A stretch of 26,783 bases of DNA from an uncultured delta proteobacterium. Its GTDB lineage: Bacteria > Desulfobacterota > Binatia > UBA9968. The translations under genes were made by a program, and so were the position numbers. Positions 10,831 through 26,392 of this stretch are shown here, piece after piece. The stretch lies in NCBI GenBank assembly GCA_963840855.1, contig CAWJBB010000019.1, positions 1 to 26,783 on the forward strand, read 5' to 3'. A model generated the notes under the pieces. That model saw only the letters and a program-made list of their open reading frames with translations. It did no database searches and was not told the origin of the DNA. Position 1 is the first letter of the stretch. Every line of letters begins with the position of its first letter.

Positions 10831-11195
10831 CGCTTCACTGCCTGGCAGGGGCCTGACGACAGAATGCCAACATTAGCAACCGCAACCGCGGCACGCAATC
10901 CTTTTGTGTTCAAACGATCGCCAAGACGACACATAGGATTCTGCTGAAAAACCCTAAGAATACTTCGACTAGACCGCATCCTATAGCCGCCGACAAACTC
11001 CGCGGACTTGACGTTGGTCGACGGGCGTTTTAGGCTGCCGCCTATGGCCATATAACCCGACTCGCGACGGCGATAATGGCCAATCTCGCTGGGCTAATGC
11101 AAGATAATGGAGAAAATCCCATCGCCATTGCCGTCAGTGACACGGTTAACAATGCTAGTTGGCTGAAGGGCCGCATATCTTCGAAGGAGAAATCA

Positions 11196-12688
11196 ATGAA
11201 ACGAACCTACAAACGGGAAATACGACTCCTGCTCCTGATCGGGCTGGTTATTGGCTCGCTCAGAATCGTCTTACCGCCGGCCTCGATTGCGGCCGAGAAA
11301 CCCAGTCCCGGTTTACAGAAAGTCAACGTCGCCTACAGCTCTATCTCCGGAAACAATGCTCCGCTCTGGGTCACGCAGGAAAGAGGATTCTTCAGAAAAT
11401 ACGGATTGGACGTGCAAGCGATCTTGATCGAATCCGGGACTACCGCCGTTCAATCCCTACTTTCCGGAGAGATAAGTTTTGCTCACATGGCCGGCGCCGC
11501 CGTCATGCAGAGCAACCTCCGCGGCGCTGATGCGGTCATGATCGCCGGAGTGGTCAACACCCTTATCTTCCAGTTGTACACGGACAAAGGCATCAGCCGG
11601 CCTGATCAATTAAAAGGCAAGGCCGTCGGAGTCACCCGGTTCGGTTCATCGACCGATTTTGCCATGCGCTACGCTTTGGAAAGATATGGTCTCGAGGCCG
11701 ATAAAGATGTGACGATATTGCAGTTGGGAAATGTGCCGGCCATTTTGTCCGCTCTGGAAGCCGGTAAATTACAAGGAGCGATGCTTTCGCCGCCAACCAC
11801 GCTGAGAGCTAAAAAAGCGGGATTTCCGGTTTTAGCGGATCTGCAAATGCTTGGATTGGAATATCAGCACACCGGGATCGCCACAACCCGATCGTTGATT
11901 AAATCCAAACCGGAACTGGTTCGCGACTTTATGAGAGCCTACGTGGAAGGGATTCATTACGCCAAGACGCACCGCAAGGAATCGTTGGATATCCTCGCGA
12001 AATATCTTCGGACCGACGACAAGGACGTGTTGGAAGAGACTTATGAAACCATCATGGTCACCTTGGTTCCCGAAAAGCCTTATCCGACGCTCAAGGGTAT
12101 ACAAATTATGTTACGTGAGATGGGGGTTAAAGATCCGGTGGCGCGCTCGGCTAAACCCGAGCAATTCGTGGACCTCACTTTTGTCAAAGAACTCGACGGC
12201 TCCGGTTTCGTTGATCGTTTATACAAACCCCAAGCAGTGGCAAAAGCGGCGCCAGCGAAAGTAGAACCTACGCCGGCTCCCGCGGTTGCAAGTAAGCCTG
12301 CGCCAGCGAAAGTAGAACCCACGCCGGCTCCTGCGGTTGCAAGTAAGCCTGCGCCAGCGAAAGTAGAACCTACGCCTGCCCCTCGGTTGCAAGTAAGCCC
12401 GCGCCGCCGGCCAGTGACAAAGTCGCTTCCATCGCCAAACCCGAAGGGTCACGGGAGTCGTCGACCCAAGCGGCGGCCAAACCCAGTCAGGTCTTAACGG
12501 CACAAGCAGCCGCAACCACTCCTTATGTCGTAGCGGCCGGAGATAACCTGAGCAGAATAGCGCAAAAGTTTTACAACACGAGCCAGAAGTGGGTCAAAAT
12601 CTATGAAGCCAATCGAGACACGGTGCAGAATCCGCATTACATTTATATCGGACAGAATCTGAACATTCCGCCTGATGACGGGCGGTAA
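11196..12688 (+). CDS. NMT1/THI5-SsuA-type ABC substrate-binding protein with Pro/Ala/Lys linker and C-terminal LysM domain (1-bp frameshift near 12384)
   Basis: SBP motifs GFFRKYGLDV and LKGKAVGVTRFGS. AAGGAG RBS before ATG 11196. The shifted frame from 12386 is open to TAA 12686-12688 and encodes YVVAAGDNLSRIAQKFYNTSQKWVKIYEANRDTVQNPHYIYIGQNLNIP (LysM). Confidence 0.85.
12249..12400 (+). repeat. Three tandem 51-bp coding repeats (APAKVEPTPAPAVASKP)
   Basis: Units at 12249-12299, 12300-12350 and 12351-12400. The third unit is 50 nt, missing one G. Confidence 0.95.
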
Positions 12689-21689: not shown

Positions 21690-23951
21690 ATGGCAAAGAC
21701 AGCACCGATCATAGGCGCAGCTGTAGGGCGGGTTGAAGGCGCGGATAAGGTCAGCGGTCAGGCGACATATGGCGCGGACGTCCATTTTCCGGACGCCCTG
21801 TGGGGAAAGATTCTGCGTAGCCCCTATCCCCATGCCCGTATCAAAAGCATCGATGTGTCGAAAGCGTGGAAGGTCGATGGCGTGAAAGCCATCGTCACGG
21901 GCAAAGATGAGCCGGAGCACTATCAAGGCAAAAGCATTCGCGACATTCCGGTTCTCTGTTGGGACAAAGCGCGTTACATCGGCGACCGGGTGGCGGCGGT
22001 GGCGGCGGAGAGCCGGGACGCGGCGGAAGAGGCGATCGATTTAATCGACGTCGAGTACGAAGAACTGCCGGCGGTCTTCGATATCCTCGAAGCGATGAAG
22101 CCCGGCGCGCCGGTGCTGCACGATAACGCGCCGGGTTACGACGGCGCGCCGGCGGATATCATGGCTCCGGGCGGCGGCAACGTGGTGAACAAATTGACTT
22201 GGGGCAAGGGCGACGTTGAGAAGGGATTCCGCGAGGCGGACATCGTACTGGAACATCAGTTCCGCATCCCCATTCATCATCAAGGTTATCTCGAGCCGCA
22301 ATCGTTTCTCGTGAAAATTGAAGACGACGGCAAAGTCAACGCTTGGGCATCGACGAAAGGCCCCTTCGGCACGCGCGCACAATTTGCCAAGGCGATTGGA
22401 ATTCCGCCGAATCAGATCAGCATTCATGCCGTACATGTCGGCGCCGACTTCGGCGGCAAGAGCGGCGCGGGTGAGCTGCCCATCTGTTATTTTCTCGCCA
22501 AGCGGGCCAACCGGCCGGTGAAGATCCTTCTGACCCACACCGAAGAATTAACCGTTATGAATCCCGACCATTACACGGTGGTCAACGTCAAGACCGGTAT
22601 CAAGCGCGACGGGCGCATGACCGCGCGCTATCTTCAGGCGATTCACGGCACGGGGGCTTATGCGGGCATGAAGCCTGGGCGCGCGAGCATCGGCGGCGCC
22701 GGCTCGGCGGGGCCGTACAAGATCGACAACACTCATATGGAAGCGCTGCAAGTTTATACAAACACGGTTCCCTGCGGTTTTTGGCGCGCTCCGGGAGCGA
22801 TTCAAGCCGTCTTCGCCTCGGAGTCGCACGTGGATCTGATCGCCAAGGAATTGAAAATGGACCCGGCCAAATTCCGCATGATCAACCTGGTCGGCGAGGG
22901 CGAAGAAAATGCTCTCGGCAAGACATGGGGAGGGGTGAAGGCAAAAGAAACCTTGCAGGCCGCGCTCAACGCCTCCGGTTGGAAAACCCCCAAGCGCGCC
23001 AACTATGGGCGCGGCGTCGCCATGTACGAGCGCGGCACGGGGGCGGGCAAAGTATGGGTAAATCTGGCGGCTGAGCTCGATGGAACGTTCACCGTGTTCA
23101 CGGTGGCGGGCGATCAGGGAACCGGCTTGCAGACGGTCTTATGCCAGACGGTTGCCGCGGAGATGGAAGTACCTTACGAAAATGTGCGGTGCCGTATCGG
23201 CGCCACTTCGGATGTTTCCTACAGTGTCGATGTCGGCTTCGGCGGCAGCCGCTCGACGAACATCAACAGCGCTGCCGCCGTGCAGGCGAGCGCCGAGTTG
23301 CGCGGCAAGCTCAACGCGCAGGCGGCGAAGTTGCTCGGCTGCTCCGAGGATCAGGTTGTCTACAAAGGCGGTAAGTTTTCCGCCAAGGGAAGTAAAGGCA
23401 AGCCGTTGACATTGAGACAGGTCGTGCAAGCGAACGAGGGACCGGTGACCGTCAGCATTGAAACCGAAGTGCCGCGCAAAGGCTCGTCGACTTCTTTTAT
23501 CGCGCAGGTGGCGGAGGTGGAAGTCGATCCGGAAACCGGCAGCGTCAAGCTTCATAAATTTATCTCGGCCCACGATGTCGGCACGATTATCAACCCACTC
23601 GGCCACCAGGGACAGATCGACGGTGAGGCGGTCATGGCCATCGGTTCCGGTTTGATGGAAGAGTTGATCGACGATCATGGCAAGGTCACGACGACGAATC
23701 TCGGCGAATACAAAATCCCGAACATTCTCGATGTGCCCAAATTCCAAACCGTGCTGGTCAAAGGCAAGAACGGCCCCGGCCCCTACGAAGCAAAAGGCAT
23801 CGGCGAGCACGCCAACGTTAGCCCGCCGGCGGCAATCGCTAACGCAGTCCATGACGCGGTGGGCGTGAGGGTGTTCGACATTCCGGTGACGGCGGAGAAA
23901 GTGTATCAGGCGCTAAGAGAAAAGGCGCGAGGCACGAGGCGCGAGGCGTGA
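21690..23951 (+). CDS. Xanthine dehydrogenase family molybdopterin-binding subunit (CoxL/CutL-like)
   Basis: RSPYPHARI, VGADFGGK, FWRAPG, DQGTG, GGSRS, GQIDG and AKGIGE motifs. AAGGAG RBS. Confidence 0.93.
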   Translation: MAKTAPIIGAAVGRVEGADKVSGQATYGADVHFPDALWGKILRSPYPHARIKSIDVSKAWKVDGVKAIVTGKDEPEHYQGKSIRDIPVLCWDKARYIGDRVAAVAAESRDAAEEAIDLIDVEYEELPAVFDILEAMKPGAPVLHDNAPGYDGAPADIMAPGGGNVVNKLTWGKGDVEKGFREADIVLEHQFRIPIHHQGYLEPQSFLVKIEDDGKVNAWASTKGPFGTRAQFAKAIGIPPNQISIHAVHVGADFGGKSGAGELPICYFLAKRANRPVKILLTHTEELTVMNPDHYTVVNVKTGIKRDGRMTARYLQAIHGTGAYAGMKPGRASIGGAGSAGPYKIDNTHMEALQVYTNTVPCGFWRAPGAIQAVFASESHVDLIAKELKMDPAKFRMINLVGEGEENALGKTWGGVKAKETLQAALNASGWKTPKRANYGRGVAMYERGTGAGKVWVNLAAELDGTFTVFTVAGDQGTGLQTVLCQTVAAEMEVPYENVRCRIGATSDVSYSVDVGFGGSRSTNINSAAAVQASAELRGKLNAQAAKLLGCSEDQVVYKGGKFSAKGSKGKPLTLRQVVQANEGPVTVSIETEVPRKGSSTSFIAQVAEVEVDPETGSVKLHKFISAHDVGTIINPLGHQGQIDGEAVMAIGSGLMEELIDDHGKVTTTNLGEYKIPNILDVPKFQTVLVKGKNGPGPYEAKGIGEHANVSPPAAIANAVHDAVGVRVFDIPVTAEKVYQALREKARGTRREA

Positions 23952-24095
23952 GTCGGAACTCGGTCAAGAGCTACAAGGATCTGCTTGTTTGGCAGCGAAG
24001 CATGGATCTTGTCGAGAAGGTCTATTTAGCCATGTTGGTTTCAAGACTCTCTTAATGTGTTACTCATGCCTCGCGCCTCAAGCCTCACGCCTTTT
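23920..24095 (+). mobile_element. Internally deleted (MITE-like) four-helix-bundle element bounded by inverted AGGCGYG heptamer arrays
   Basis: Left arm 23920-23953 and right arm 24062-24095 are complementary at 30/34 positions. They enclose a truncated four-helix-bundle ORF. Mobility is inferred. Confidence 0.6.
23948..24055 (+). pseudogene. 35-codon in-frame deletion derivative of a four-helix-bundle gene
   Basis: Translates (M)SRNSVKSYKDLLVWQRSMDLVEKVYLAMLVSRLS*, matching both the N- and C-terminus of 25202-25555. Confidence 0.85.
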
Positions 24096-24109
24096 ATGAA
24101 GGAGAAACT

Positions 24110-25120
24110 ATGAACGATAGCAATTACAGTCGACTGAATTTTCTTTGCTGTGCGTTGTTTTTGCTCATCGTCATCTCATCGGGTGACGCGCAAGCCCAGG
24201 ACAAAATTAAAATCGCCTACAGCTCGACGGACACGCTGAATCAGATCTGGACCATCGCTCAGGAGGCCGGTTTCTACAAAAAGCACGGTTTGGACGTGGA
24301 TCTGGTTTACATCGGCAGCACGACGATCGGCGTCGCGGCCATTGTCGCCCAGGATATTCAGGTTGGTAACGCGGCGGGCAGCGGGGTTGCCAACGCTGCC
24401 GTCCGTGGCGCCGATACCGTAAGCGTCGCCTGCGTGATCAATGTTTTGGCTTACGAGCTTGTGGTACTTGAAAGCATCAAGACTGCCGAGGATTTGAAAG
24501 GAAAGTCGATCGGCATCAGCCGCTTCGGCAGCGCGTCGGACGTGGCCGCGCGGGAGCTATTGAAAGGGCTGGGATTGCGGCCCATGGATGACGTGAAAAT
24601 ATTGCAAGTGGGAGGCGCCTCGGAGCGAGCCGCGGGTTTTAGCCGCGGCGTGATCGCCGGGTTCCCATCGCCGCCCGGAAACGTGCACTTGATTCCCGGC
24701 GGCCTGCCACACCGAGTCCTCGCGGACATGGCCGATCTCAAAAAGCCCTATCCGTTGCCGTTCATCTGCGCGGTGACAACCAAAAGCTACTTGGCCAAAA
24801 ATCGCTCCGTCGTCAAGAGAGTCGTGATGGCGCTGATTGAAGCGTCGCATTATTTCAAGACCAACAAAGAGGGAGCGCAACGGATCGTCGCTAAATACCA
24901 GCGTGGAGCGAACAAGGCTTATCTGGATAGTTCCTATGAGTCCACCGCCAAGACCCTGGAGCGGGTTCCCTACACGACTCGCGAAGGGATGAAAATTCAG
25001 CTCGACGATGCCTTGAAACAGGCGCCCGGGAGCAAAGTCACGGTGGATAGCTTGATCGATGACAGCATCGTGCGCGAGTTGGAAAAAGAAGGATTCATCG
25101 ACCGGGTGTATGGGAAATAG
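24110..25120 (+). CDS. NMT1/THI5-SsuA-type ABC substrate-binding protein
   Basis: Signal peptide, GFYKKHGLDV and LKGKSIGISRFGS. AAGGAG RBS. Confidence 0.9.
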   Translation: MNDSNYSRLNFLCCALFLLIVISSGDAQAQDKIKIAYSSTDTLNQIWTIAQEAGFYKKHGLDVDLVYIGSTTIGVAAIVAQDIQVGNAAGSGVANAAVRGADTVSVACVINVLAYELVVLESIKTAEDLKGKSIGISRFGSASDVAARELLKGLGLRPMDDVKILQVGGASERAAGFSRGVIAGFPSPPGNVHLIPGGLPHRVLADMADLKKPYPLPFICAVTTKSYLAKNRSVVKRVVMALIEASHYFKTNKEGAQRIVAKYQRGANKAYLDSSYESTAKTLERVPYTTREGMKIQLDDALKQAPGSKVTVDSLIDDSIVRELEKEGFIDRVYGK

Positions 25121-25153
25121 GCGTGAGGCATGAGGCGCGAGGCGTGAGTAAGA
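25119..25153 (+). repeat. Left heptamer array (AGGCGTG-type x4) of the four-helix-bundle element
   Basis: aggcgtg aggcatg aggcgcg aggcgtg agtaaga, overlapping the SBP stop codon. Confidence 0.9.
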
Positions 25154-25201
25154 GTAAAAGATAAGAGCGTTCCACAATGCCGAAAGAGTCGCTGGAGTGA
25201 G

Positions 25202-25555
25202 ATGGTTAAAAGCTACAAAGATCTTTTGGTGTGGCAACGGAGCATGGACTTAGTTGAGACTGTGTACCGTTTCACGGGAAGTTTCCCGTCTGTGGAGCAG
25301 TGGGGATTGGTCTCTCAAATGAGGAGAGCAGCGATATCTGTGCCGTCAAACGTCGCTGAAGGTTACGGACGGCAAGCGACTGGCGAGTACAGGCACCATC
25401 TTTCGATTGGTCGTGGTTCGTTGCTCGAGTTGGAGACTCAGGTGCTCTTGGCGAAAAGGTTAAGATACCTGCAACCGGCGGATGCTGATTCTGTTTTGAA
25501 TGAAATTGAGGAGATTAGCAGAATGATTGCTACGCTGGTTTCAAAACTCTCTTAA
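25202..25555 (+). CDS. Four helix bundle protein (23S rRNA intervening-sequence protein / Avd-like family)
   Basis: SYKDLLVWQRSM...FP..E.WGL.SQMRRAA.SVPSN.AEG..R...RGSL.ELETQ family pattern, 117 aa. Confidence 0.93.
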   Translation: MVKSYKDLLVWQRSMDLVETVYRFTGSFPSVEQWGLVSQMRRAAISVPSNVAEGYGRQATGEYRHHLSIGRGSLLELETQVLLAKRLRYLQPADADSVLNEIEEISRMIATLVSKLS

Positions 25556-25559
25556 TGTA

Positions 25560-25590
25560 TTACTCACGCCTCGCGCCTCAAGCTCACGCC
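25560..25590 (-). repeat. Right heptamer array 1 (inverted)
   Basis: 25560-25580 is the exact reverse complement of 25131-25151 (21 bp). Confidence 0.9.
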
Positions 25591-25600
25591 CTTCTAGGGA

Positions 25601-25642
25601 ATTAGCCGTATGTTGGCAACATAGGTGTCGAAACTATCATGA
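25601..25642 (+). pseudogene. C-terminal remnant of another four-helix-bundle gene
   Basis: Translates ISRMLAT*VSKLS*, compared with ISRMIATLVSKLS* in the intact gene. Confidence 0.8.
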
Positions 25643-25645
25643 TAA

Positions 25646-25680
25646 TCTTACTCGCGCCTCATGCCTCACGCCTCACGCCT
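25646..25680 (-). repeat. Right heptamer array 2 (inverted)
   Basis: 25651-25673 is the exact reverse complement of 25119-25141 (23 bp). Confidence 0.9.
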
Positions 25681-25693
25681 TCTTGGAGGAATT

Positions 25694-26392
25694 ATGATTG
25701 ATCTTTATTATTGGACGACGCCCAACGGGCATAAGATCACGATCTTTTTAGAGGAGACGGGCCTGCCTTACACGCTCAAGCCGATAAATATAGGCAAGGG
25801 CGAGCAGTTCGCGCCGGAGTTTTTGAAAATTTCGCCGAACAATCGGATACCGGCGATCGTCGATCTCGAACCGGGCGACGGCAAGGGGCCGCTGAGCATT
25901 TTCGAGTCGGGCGCGATTCTCGAATATCTCGGCGATAAAACCGGCCAGTTTCTGCCCAGAGATGTGCGCGGGCGCGCCGAGGTCATGCAATGGCTTTTCT
26001 GGCAAATGGGCGGTCTCGGACCGATGCTCGGGCAGAACCATCACTTCCGCGGCTACGCCGCCGAGAAAATTACCTACGCCATTGAGCGCTACACGAAGGA
26101 AACCGAGCGGCTCTATGGCATACTCGACGAACGGCTCGCGGACCGCGAGTTTATCGCCGGCGATTATTCGATCGCCGATATGGCGTGTTATCCCTGGATC
26201 GTCTTACACGAGCGGCAGGGCCAGGATTTAAACGATTTTCCCGATCTCAAGCGCTGGTTCGAAACCATTCAAAAGCGCGACGCCGTCAAGCGGGCCTATG
26301 AGGCGGCGCGCAAGGTCAATCCCGATGCCAGAGGGATGAGCGAGGAAGCGAAGAAAATTCTTTTCGGCCAGGGGCGGCGAGCGCGAGTTTAG
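25694..26392 (+). CDS. Glutathione S-transferase / GSH-dependent disulfide oxidoreductase (YfcG/YghU-like)
   Basis: MIDLYYWTTPNGHK, ISPNNRIPAI, FESGAIL, WQMGGLGPM.GQ.HHF and YSIADMA. GGAGG RBS before ATG 25694. Confidence 0.93.
   Translation: MIDLYYWTTPNGHKITIFLEETGLPYTLKPINIGKGEQFAPEFLKISPNNRIPAIVDLEPGDGKGPLSIFESGAILEYLGDKTGQFLPRDVRGRAEVMQWLFWQMGGLGPMLGQNHHFRGYAAEKITYAIERYTKETERLYGILDERLADREFIAGDYSIADMACYPWIVLHERQGQDLNDFPDLKRWFETIQKRDAVKRAYEAARKVNPDARGMSEEAKKILFGQGRRARV

Follow-up and report, generated by a model that had tools for sequence, protein, structure and literature searches.

The stretch of DNA analysed here (the window, 26,783 nt, from an uncultured delta proteobacterium of the Binatia) is contig C19 of a 7.1-Mb, 93-contig assembly (56% G+C, completeness 94%, contamination 8.3%). 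It holds an operon in which an XDH-type molybdopterin large subunit (XDH), an NMT1-type periplasmic solute-binding protein (SBP) and a glutathione S-transferase (GST) are encoded in succession. At both boundaries, XDH/SBP (junction 1) and SBP/GST (junction 2), a gene for a four-helix-bundle (4HB) protein, intact or as a remnant, is enclosed by tandem heptamer arrays that face each other as inverted repeats (Table 1). A preliminary description of the locus had placed arrays at both junctions with a 4HB open reading frame (ORF) between them, and the sequence, a repeat finder and Tandem Repeats Finder (TRF) located them exactly there: five period-7 arrays of AGGCRYG or its complement, of 4.1–4.3 units each. 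At junction 2 an intact PF05635 gene lies between inverted 7-mer arrays within about 200 nt on each side, the arrangement that we refer to as a heptamer-armed 4HB cassette. Such cassettes make up a widespread class for which we could find only partial precedents, and no published description, in the literature searched.

The arms of junction 1 (23920–23953 and 24062–24095) are 34 nt each and 88% complementary, with an A4/T4 run that lengthens the palindrome; those of junction 2 (25119–25156 and 25643–25680) are 38 nt each and 87% complementary, and when slipped by one unit they pair perfectly over 23 nt. Both left arrays overlap the stop codon of the upstream gene, as first proposed, in two different ways. 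The XDH frame traverses the entire left array of junction 1, so that its last 8 or so codons (ARGTRREA) and its stop (TGA, 23949–23951, within the last unit) are encoded by the arm, and the SBP stop (TAG, 25118–25120) is formed jointly with the first unit of the junction 2 left arm, 2–3 amino acids short of the ends of element-free orthologues (GKGN* or GKSG*). The idea that the host genes are left intact is thus not quite right. On the other side, the ribosome-binding sites (RBSs) of SBP (AAGGAG, 24099–24104) and GST (GGAGG, 25685–25689) follow 6 nt past the junction 1 right arm and 4 nt past the outer right arm of junction 2, the few nucleotides that had been anticipated. The 35-aa ORF 23948–24055, taken at first for an internally deleted 4HB gene, does carry a deletion, and is more exactly a fusion of 21 N-terminal codons (23963–24025; 95% identity to the intact protein over 21 aa by tblastn) to the last 8 4HB codons and stop (24029–24055); the loop aligns with the intact copy as two direct repeats (75% and 89%). 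The C-terminal relic at junction 2 is also a genuine 4HB 3′ end, with limits at about 25591–25650 rather than 25601–25642, and has an 11-nt run in common with the coding-sequence ends of the type-B cassettes described below. The start of the cassette leader, AGTAAG, is found again behind arrays in relatives.

Table 1 Features of the two junctions, their host genes and a gene-less hairpin in the window
Feature	Position	Strand	Basis
XDH-type molybdopterin large subunit, host gene	21690..23951	+	Pfam PF02738, PF20256, PF01315
Junction 1 left arm, (AGGCRYG) x4.3, G-rich	23923..23952	+	TRF, inverted pair
Junction 1 loop, internally deleted 4HB gene	23953..24062	+	tblastn, direct repeats
Junction 1 right arm, C-rich complement	24063..24092	+	repeat finder, TRF, fold
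NMT1-type periplasmic SBP, host gene	24110..25120	+	Pfam PF09084, PF13379
Junction 2 left arm, (AGGCRYG) x4.3	25119..25148	+	repeat finder, TRF
Cassette leader (AGTAAGAGTAAAAG...) with the 4HB gene's own RBS (GGAG)	25149..25201	+	sequence, promoter scan
Intact 4HB gene, 117 aa	25202..25555	+	PF05635, TIGR02436, NF008911
Junction 2 right arm a (inner; relatives have an orthologous single right arm)	25563..25590	+	
3′-end relic of a second, diverged 4HB cassette	25591..25650	+	alignment with 4HB 3′ ends
Junction 2 right arm b (outer)	25651..25680	+	repeat finder, TRF, fold
GST, host gene	25694..26392	+	Pfam GST_N, GST_C; start by homology (MIDLYYW; orthologue starts)
Gene-less GTTCAAN hairpin, 3.9 and 4.0 units, 10-nt loop	5441..5505	.	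TRF, sequence, census

Neither the arms nor their arrangement can be put down to chance, because the AGGC pattern read backwards gives 0 matches in the genome against 31 for the forward pattern, and because random 350-nt genome intervals rarely reach an inverted-repeat score of 14 (2 of 1000), with the two junctions scoring 23 and 19. Junction 2 is not an assembly artefact either, since soil metagenome contigs of other studies cover it entirely; one of them, from an independent study (run X2, 660 nt), spans 25053–25709. That the arms would form a stem had been part of the preliminary description, and predicted folds support it: stems of 34–38 bp enclose the 4HB ORF or its remnant, with minimum free energies of −87.1 kcal/mol at junction 1 (z −7.0) and −227 kcal/mol at junction 2 (z −5.7), and no shuffled sequence folded as well. 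A consensus scan detected no promoter ahead of the 4HB gene and no intrinsic terminator at either junction. Promoter-like hexamers (TTGGCA-16-TATCAT, 10/12) occur at 25613–25640, within the relic and just upstream of GST; the region yielded two such sites against 1.1 expected, and these may be chance.

The product of the intact gene matches PF05635 (E 7.3e-37, 126.3 bits, cut-off 33.8), TIGR02436 (E 1.9e-35, 121.4 bits, cut-off 24) and NF008911 (144 bits, cut-off 137). PF05635 is an orphan family of very large size: a single search yielded 5375 members at E ≤ 1e-5 among its near-length candidates. Structures have been solved, and no function is known. The closest solved relative is XCC0516 of Xanthomonas (PDB 2gsc, E 9e-28), the entry for which contains five chains, and by homology a five-part ring is predicted for the protein encoded here. 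Compared with seven intact relatives, the gene has saturated synonymous differences (pS 0.66–0.88) and few nonsynonymous ones (pN 0.11–0.25); the ratio of nonsynonymous to synonymous substitution rates (dN/dS) is 0.074 against locus L028, an intact relative with estimable dS, and 0.20 against L048, the gene of which has two in-frame stops. These substitution patterns indicate that the protein is under purifying selection. Homology to Avd, the accessory protein of diversity-generating retroelements, is distant and amounts to a shared fold family (PF22296, E 1.7e-4; NF033474, E 7.9e-5; both under their cut-offs, with 22.9 bits for the Avd model against a cut-off of 80), and other features of such retroelements were looked for in vain: there is no reverse transcriptase (RT) in the window, and no RT, template repeat or variable repeat near the 4HB gene.

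To place the cassette in a wider context, we scanned homologues of the protein, taking one genome per species, and obtained 80 loci (37–80% identity), 3 of which were dropped for short flanks. According to the record titles they span Chloroflexota, Binatia, Acidobacteriota, Planctomycetota, Verrucomicrobiota, Bacteroidota, Patescibacteria, Bacillota and others. The 200-nt flanks form an inverted repeat with a score of at least 14 at 57 of the 77 loci, as against 2 of 297 shifted intervals, and the summed period-7 signal reaches 20 at 43 of 77 loci and at 26 of 297 controls, which at ±600 nt partly overlap the true arms. These counts support the recurring element family postulated for this locus. 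Period 7 dominates, with period 8 in a few loci. Counts that depend on the arms were made on 65 loci with a score of at least 12 (64 and the window; 13 dropped), in which the arms have a median length of 30 nt, mostly 3–5 units, and the loops a median of 408 nt. Counting co-directional upstream frames of at least 90 codons, 53 of the 65 loci have a stop codon between −42 and +39 nt relative to the base at which the left arm begins, 36 have it within −9 to +8 nt and 27 inside the arm; a co-directional start follows no more than 60 nt past the right arm in 47, most commonly after 10–23 nt. It follows from these counts that the tight fit between stop codon and RBS, described initially for the two junctions of the window, is the rule. 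The heptamer itself follows the protein: where the encoded protein shares at least 55% identity with that of the window, 14 of 17 loci keep an RGGC core, and below 55% 6 of 48 have it. Because it is kept despite saturated synonymous sites, the core appears to be constrained together with the protein lineage.

The hairpins also have a constant polarity. G exceeds C in the 5′ arm of 62 of the 65 loci (C exceeds G in 1 and the two are equal in 2), and when similar units are chained into 19 clusters, 17 have a G-rich and 1 a C-rich 5′ arm; these loci are related and are not independent trials, yet they cover many unrelated unit sequences. At 42 of the 65 loci, 75% or more of the units have AG in one and the same phase; for CT this holds at 2. 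The gene-less tight pairs of the genome (n = 75) are biased likewise: G outnumbers C in the 5′ arm of 57, C outnumbers G in 7, and the remaining 11 have equal counts. As a hairpin reads the same on both strands, the identity of the G-rich arm is a property of the hairpin itself and not of gene orientation. This polarity, a G-rich 5′ arm with phased AG, gives a concrete indication of what is being read, be it by the protein or by selection, and three explanations come to mind. The G-rich arm could supply stop codons (TAG, TGA) to the upstream gene; a C-rich arm emerging first would expose a Rho-loading stretch and could be selected against; or the protein could read the spaced AG anchors on a single strand. 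The last has a working analogy in TRAP, the trp RNA-binding attenuation protein, a ring that binds spaced (G/U)AG repeats: here, too, a putative oligomeric ring is combined with AG every 7 nt on one strand, in 3–5 units per arm, although the 4HB fold is unrelated to that of TRAP.

The arrays are not confined to the cassette. Throughout the genome there is a population of single arrays and of hairpins, most of them gene-less, of which they form part. There are 19 exact arrays of at least three AGGCNNG units (110 with two substitutions allowed, some of them by chance), and about 17 AGGCNNG arrays form close inverted pairs with loops of 20–70 nt, intergenic and often between a stop codon and an RBS. 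The commonest heptamer family is GTTCAAN, with about 275 of 880 non-redundant period-7 rows from a lenient TRF run that also picked up coding periodicity. Across all families we counted 100 inverted heptamer pairs within 1.5 kb, 68 with loops below 60 nt, and at least 75 gene-less tight pairs. Two loops of about 500 nt enclose PF05635 matches, one on C19 and one on C65 (AGGTGTC arms). Loops of about 1.1 kb were considered as further cargo and rejected, as they hold ordinary host genes between neighbouring hairpins. Among the seven PF05635 places in the genome, four have a flanking inverted-repeat score of at least 14, to be compared with the 2 in 1000 random intervals; two score 11 and have degenerate arrays (GAGRTCR on C12 and a GTGCTCGT-like unit on C40), and a pseudogene on C21, interrupted by an in-frame TAG, is flanked by an array on a single side. 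The GTTCAAN hairpin of the window lies between genes for a trypsin-like peptidase and a MoxR ATPase. A third type of repeat, tandem TGGAAC/TTGAAC words about 10–11 nt apart, was seen in loops of AGGC hairpins (C45:20702–20833, C16:20003–20120, C40:72413–72530, and the SBP/GST junction of relative G002, locus L009); it splits one 4HB gene on C40 and at the orthologous junction of G002 takes the place of the 4HB gene.

Such a population resembles repetitive extragenic palindromic (REP) and REPIN sequences, which are dispersed intergenic palindromic hairpins, a few of which enclose a conserved RAYT gene, each gene lineage being paired with its own repeat. Gene-less hairpins (about 17 AGGCNNG pairs, 75 in all families) likewise stand here beside a few gene-bearing ones, and each gene lineage has its own repeat sequence. 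Unlike in REPIN/RAYT systems, the enclosed gene encodes a 117-aa helical bundle and not a Y1 transposase, and the arms are tandem heptamers rather than a single palindrome. It is conceivable that a separate enzyme, such as a Y1 or RAYT-like transposase, mobilises the hairpins as REP/REPIN-like repeats, and that the 4HB gene is merely a passenger lodged in their loops. The large excess of gene-less over gene-bearing hairpins would suit this explanation, as would the ten PF01797 (Y1-like) matches in the genome, including a multi-copy gene with an AGGC-type array 45 nt before its start. We nonetheless regard it as very improbable: an array stands right beside only one of the ten matches, with a second about 1.1 kb off and no right arm in sight, the window contains no PF01797 match, and, unlike a random passenger, 4HB lineages keep their own heptamer across phyla despite saturated synonymous sites. 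Y1 transposases are accordingly weak candidates for the driver. The multi-copy gene in question is at C83:29786–30650, with copies at C83:37182 and C40:83805; the array before its ATG reads AGGCACG AGGCGAG AGGCAAC AGGCAAT AGT, a layout like that of a cassette left arm and leader. An RT was also considered as a partner of the cassette and rejected, the only RVT_1 match of the genome being a frameshifted group II intron-type RT on another contig (C87:47500–48560), after which an AGGC array occurs (C87:48657).

Orthologous junctions differ in occupancy between relatives, which the preliminary description had expected. We examined 40 relatives, 14 of them with an orthologous SBP gene (70–88% identity); the tallies include the unpublished genomes G009 and G015, and the reading of locus L016 depends on G015. 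In the congener G002 (XDH 93%, SBP 88% identical) XDH ends LRRK* with no array at XDH/SBP, and SBP/GST has partial AGGC arms around the TGGAAC-type tandem repeat and no 4HB gene. In G020 a left arm is present at the SBP stop, and behind it the assembly has a gap. Hairpins built from other heptamers occupy these junctions in G007, G011 and G021, and the remaining relatives with an orthologous SBP have no hairpins there. Of the 24 genomes of the family, 15 contain arrays of three AGGCNNG units and 23 contain PF05635. In the two sister families the arrays are missing from all 16 genomes, and PF05635 is present in 5 of 5 genomes of one and in 0 of 11 of the other, so that 11 sister-family genomes have neither. 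Within the assembly, a second SBP–4HB–GST copy of 97% DNA identity (C58:103927–106050, reaching the contig end) represents a paralogue or else, given the 8.3% contamination, another strain in the same bin. Compared with the window, it has one extra left-arm unit, an 87-nt deletion that fuses arrays a and b with loss of the relic, and two 1-nt indels in the 4HB gene, which could be assembly errors in short homopolymers.

To follow the SBP/GST cassette among close relatives we scanned metagenomes (79 loci) and used the 24 best rows together with L134, L144, L146, L153 and L160–L162; with 7 genome loci (at least 71% identity) and the window this gave a comparison set of 39, other rows at 70–76% being left unused. 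The same SBP lies upstream in 19 of the 35 loci with a readable upstream frame, and the same GST downstream in 19 of 39; the others (proteins 70–82% identical) have 11 other upstream and 15 other downstream contexts. L029 and L030 have XDH/4HB/GST without SBP, and a soil contig (run X5) that joins 23954 to 25118 is SBP-less in the same way, with a short side of 31 nt; contig joints between arrays with sides as short as this (23–31 nt) may stem from other loci. The SBP-less form matches the product that recombination between the two direct left arms would be expected to leave. At SBP/GST two cassette types alternate, type A (AGGCRYG arms, protein 80–96% identical) and type B (AGGCAHT arms, protein 72–75% identical), with L093 as a hybrid cassette, although the host genes are equally near those of the window in both (SBP 84–93%, GST 83–89%). 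Left and right arms match within types and not between them (complementarity A×A 19.6, B×B 18.8, A×B 9.1, B×A 8.3). Types were assigned from the arms before a DNA tree of SBP and GST was built from 15 loci (L109, L113, L114, L146 and L160 had too little host sequence to be included, and L029 and L030 lack SBP). They interleave on it, with sister pairs at 100/100 support that combine L110 (A) with L048 (B), L028 (A) with L153 (B) and L144 (B) with the hybrid L093, and a single type-B clade is rejected by the approximately unbiased test (P = 2.7e-9). The cassette exchange that had been suggested for such junctions is thereby supported: because the types interleave on the host-gene tree, cassettes have been replaced at a fixed site among close relatives. 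The replacement may have run through the arms, through the flanking genes or through the sorting of an old tandem pair.

That two cassettes were once adjacent at this site follows from the relic, which stands behind a type-A gene in the window and in L108 (a 96% relative). The composite right end of arm a, relic and arm b is found at junction 2 in both and also at junction 1 of L108, where at least the last 23 4HB codons precede it. Its presence at both junctions argues for copying or conversion of a unit across the 1.2 kb that separate the two sites, and junction 1 of the window looks like the L108 form after two deletions. A soil relative has 58 other nucleotides in place of the junction 1 loop, and most junction 1 orthologues have one or two G-rich arrays only and no right arm. 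At XDH/SBP of L153, L028, L093 and L144, a B-like and then an A-like G-rich array, each ending in AGT, stand with neither gene nor right arm. Copies thus gain or lose units and undergo deletion between direct arrays, and gene-less forms arise as the cassette decays. The window is in this respect a natural experiment, with an intact cassette, a deleted one, a relic and, on C58, a near-identical copy with slipped arms, and relatives add sites that are bare, filled with either cassette type or reduced to single arrays.

This history bears on whether the cassette serves its host. In a host-serving RNA-processing module, the hairpins would punctuate the operon as sites of processing or stabilisation through which neighbouring cistrons are uncoupled, and the 4HB protein would act for the host as their regulator or chaperone and not be a selfish product. 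A constrained gene that has long resided at one and the same junction would be natural for such a module, as would exact placement between stop and RBS in the direction of the host genes (53 of 65 loci), the hundreds of intergenic hairpins in the genome, and a 5′-G-rich polarity that could avoid exposing a C-rich Rho-loading stretch. We think it unlikely all the same, because the gene is dispensable (lost in G002, frameshifted in C58, deleted at junction 1), the same junctions carry different heptamer families in related genera, two cassette types swap among close relatives, and 11 sister-family genomes do without gene and arrays alike.

The closest known counterparts of the cassette are found in ribosomal RNA. 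In Coxiella burnetii, the intervening sequence (IVS) in helix 45 of 23S rRNA forms a 28-bp stem in which RNase III cuts, carries GACAGAT ×3 before the start of an S23p ORF, with a copy number that differs between strains, and is regarded as selfish; the ORF is degraded in some strains and is seen by the authors as decaying; ORF-bearing IVSs are also cited for Leptospira, Brucella and Xanthomonas (PMC4990558). The likeness to ORF-bearing 23S rRNA IVSs, which the preliminary description had drawn from the protein family, thus extends to a PF05635/S23p ORF in a stem loop built from terminal inverted repeats (28 bp in Coxiella, 34–38 nt here) and to tandem heptamers, which in Coxiella lie in the 5′ part, ahead of the ORF (PMC4990558). 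The cassette differs in its host site, which is an mRNA operon junction (XDH/SBP, SBP/GST) and not helix 25 or 45, and in having both arms made entirely of heptamer arrays, a gene under purifying selection and gene-less copies in the genome. Heptanucleotide repeats have been reported from bacteria without explanation (PMC4692102, PMC4679880), among them direct TAACTGA repeats in Beggiatoaceae (PMC4679880), GGGGAYT repeats in Nostoc and 70–75 convergent GGGAATC pairs per genome in Xanthomonas, the last interpreted by Rehm et al. (2015) as DNA that forms G-quadruplexes or cruciforms (PMC4692102). Like the arrays described here, the GGGAATC pairs are intergenic, capable of forming stem loops, G-rich array first and variable in unit number between species; unlike them, most units here are unable to form quadruplexes. 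The term 'S23' occurs 0 times in the text of that study, which draws no link to S23p or 4HB proteins (PMC4692102). Full-text searches of the literature returned, among the papers reachable, no description of PF05635 genes within inverted heptamer arrays outside rRNA.

An IVS-like selfish cassette is the best available interpretation of these data, and it would make the element the counterpart, in ordinary operons, of the ORF-bearing 23S rRNA IVS. With moderate confidence, we propose that the cassette is co-transcribed and closed by a stem, that its constrained ring protein acts on the AG-phased heptamers of the cassette itself, and that turnover proceeds by slippage, array-to-array deletion, local copying and allele replacement. 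Having no promoter of its own, the cassette would be transcribed along with the host operon, and in the transcript its arms would pair into a stem of 30–38 bp that sets it apart. By analogy with IVSs, the stem is probably cut by RNase III. It is probable that the ring protein recognises the heptamers of the G-rich 5′ arm by their AG anchors, and in this way it would control stem formation or processing, or help copying; this step, in which the protein reads the repeat, is the more doubtful part of the proposal, and we put it forward tentatively.

Several observations weigh against this interpretation. The cassette at SBP/GST has been kept across hosts with saturated synonymous sites while its gene stayed intact and constrained, and because of this long residence and constraint a useful resident fits as well as a selfish element. 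No mobilising enzyme was identified; in the window, as had been noted at the outset, no transposase, integrase or RT family was found among the 31 ORFs scanned. Unlike miniature inverted-repeat transposable elements and other DNA transposons, the inverted repeats are not flanked by a target-site duplication, with no direct repeat in the flanks (GAGAAA/arm...arm/TTTATG at junction 1 and GGAAAT/arm...arm/TCTTGG at junction 2). Junction 1 orthologues keep arrays without a right arm, so a stem is unnecessary for the persistence of an array. Within a type, the own right arm pairs no better with the left arm than a foreign one does (20.2 against 19.6 in 19 orthologous cassettes), so that arm covariation comes down to one A/B switch. 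The assembled contigs of four public runs were inspected for signals at the RNA level, and one metatranscriptome contig covers the gene from 25148 to 25583, with its ends at the inner borders of the arms; it may simply break at the repeats and may be DNA, and we dropped it as a sign of RNA processing because assembly stops at repeats anyway. Finally, the 65 stems comprise 1755 Watson–Crick pairs, 46 G·U, 55 A·C and 142 other mismatches, with no excess of G·U over A·C (46 against 55, P = 0.43). Lacking a G·U bias, the stems give no sign of pairing selected in RNA rather than inherited from an inverted duplication, and the complementarity of the arms may come simply from their being inverted copies.

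The missing G·U excess, together with the single arrays that persist without a partner and the quadruplex or cruciform interpretation of the Xanthomonas pairs (PMC4692102), would be in keeping with a function at the DNA level, in which the arrays are iteron-like duplex sites, cruciforms or G-quadruplexes for a DNA-binding 4HB protein and RNA plays no part. To this, too, we give little credence. A quadruplex cannot be general, because most units here, GTTCAAN included, have no G-runs; the relatives in rRNA IVSs act as RNA (PMC4990558); and the cassette, which runs in the direction of the host genes in 53 of 65 loci, has no promoter of its own, which points to dependence on the host transcript.

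The co-transcribed selfish cassette can also be taken further. In a bolder version, which we consider unlikely, each of the five subunits of the ring would bind one AG-anchored heptamer of the single-stranded G-rich arm in the manner of TRAP, and the cassette would copy itself into hairpins of its own family without a transposase. Were this ring-reader copying true, the gene-less hairpins, the excess of bacterial heptanucleotide repeats and the ORF-bearing rRNA IVSs would be manifestations of one undescribed kind of mobile element. With the PF05635 family, heptanucleotide repeats and rRNA IVSs tied together, each gains a testable partner.

Elsewhere in the window, a 51-nt tandem repeat of 3.1 copies (12249–12405, 92% matches) sits in the 3′ part of another NMT1-type binding-protein ORF (11076–12497), in frame, 51 nt being 17 codons.

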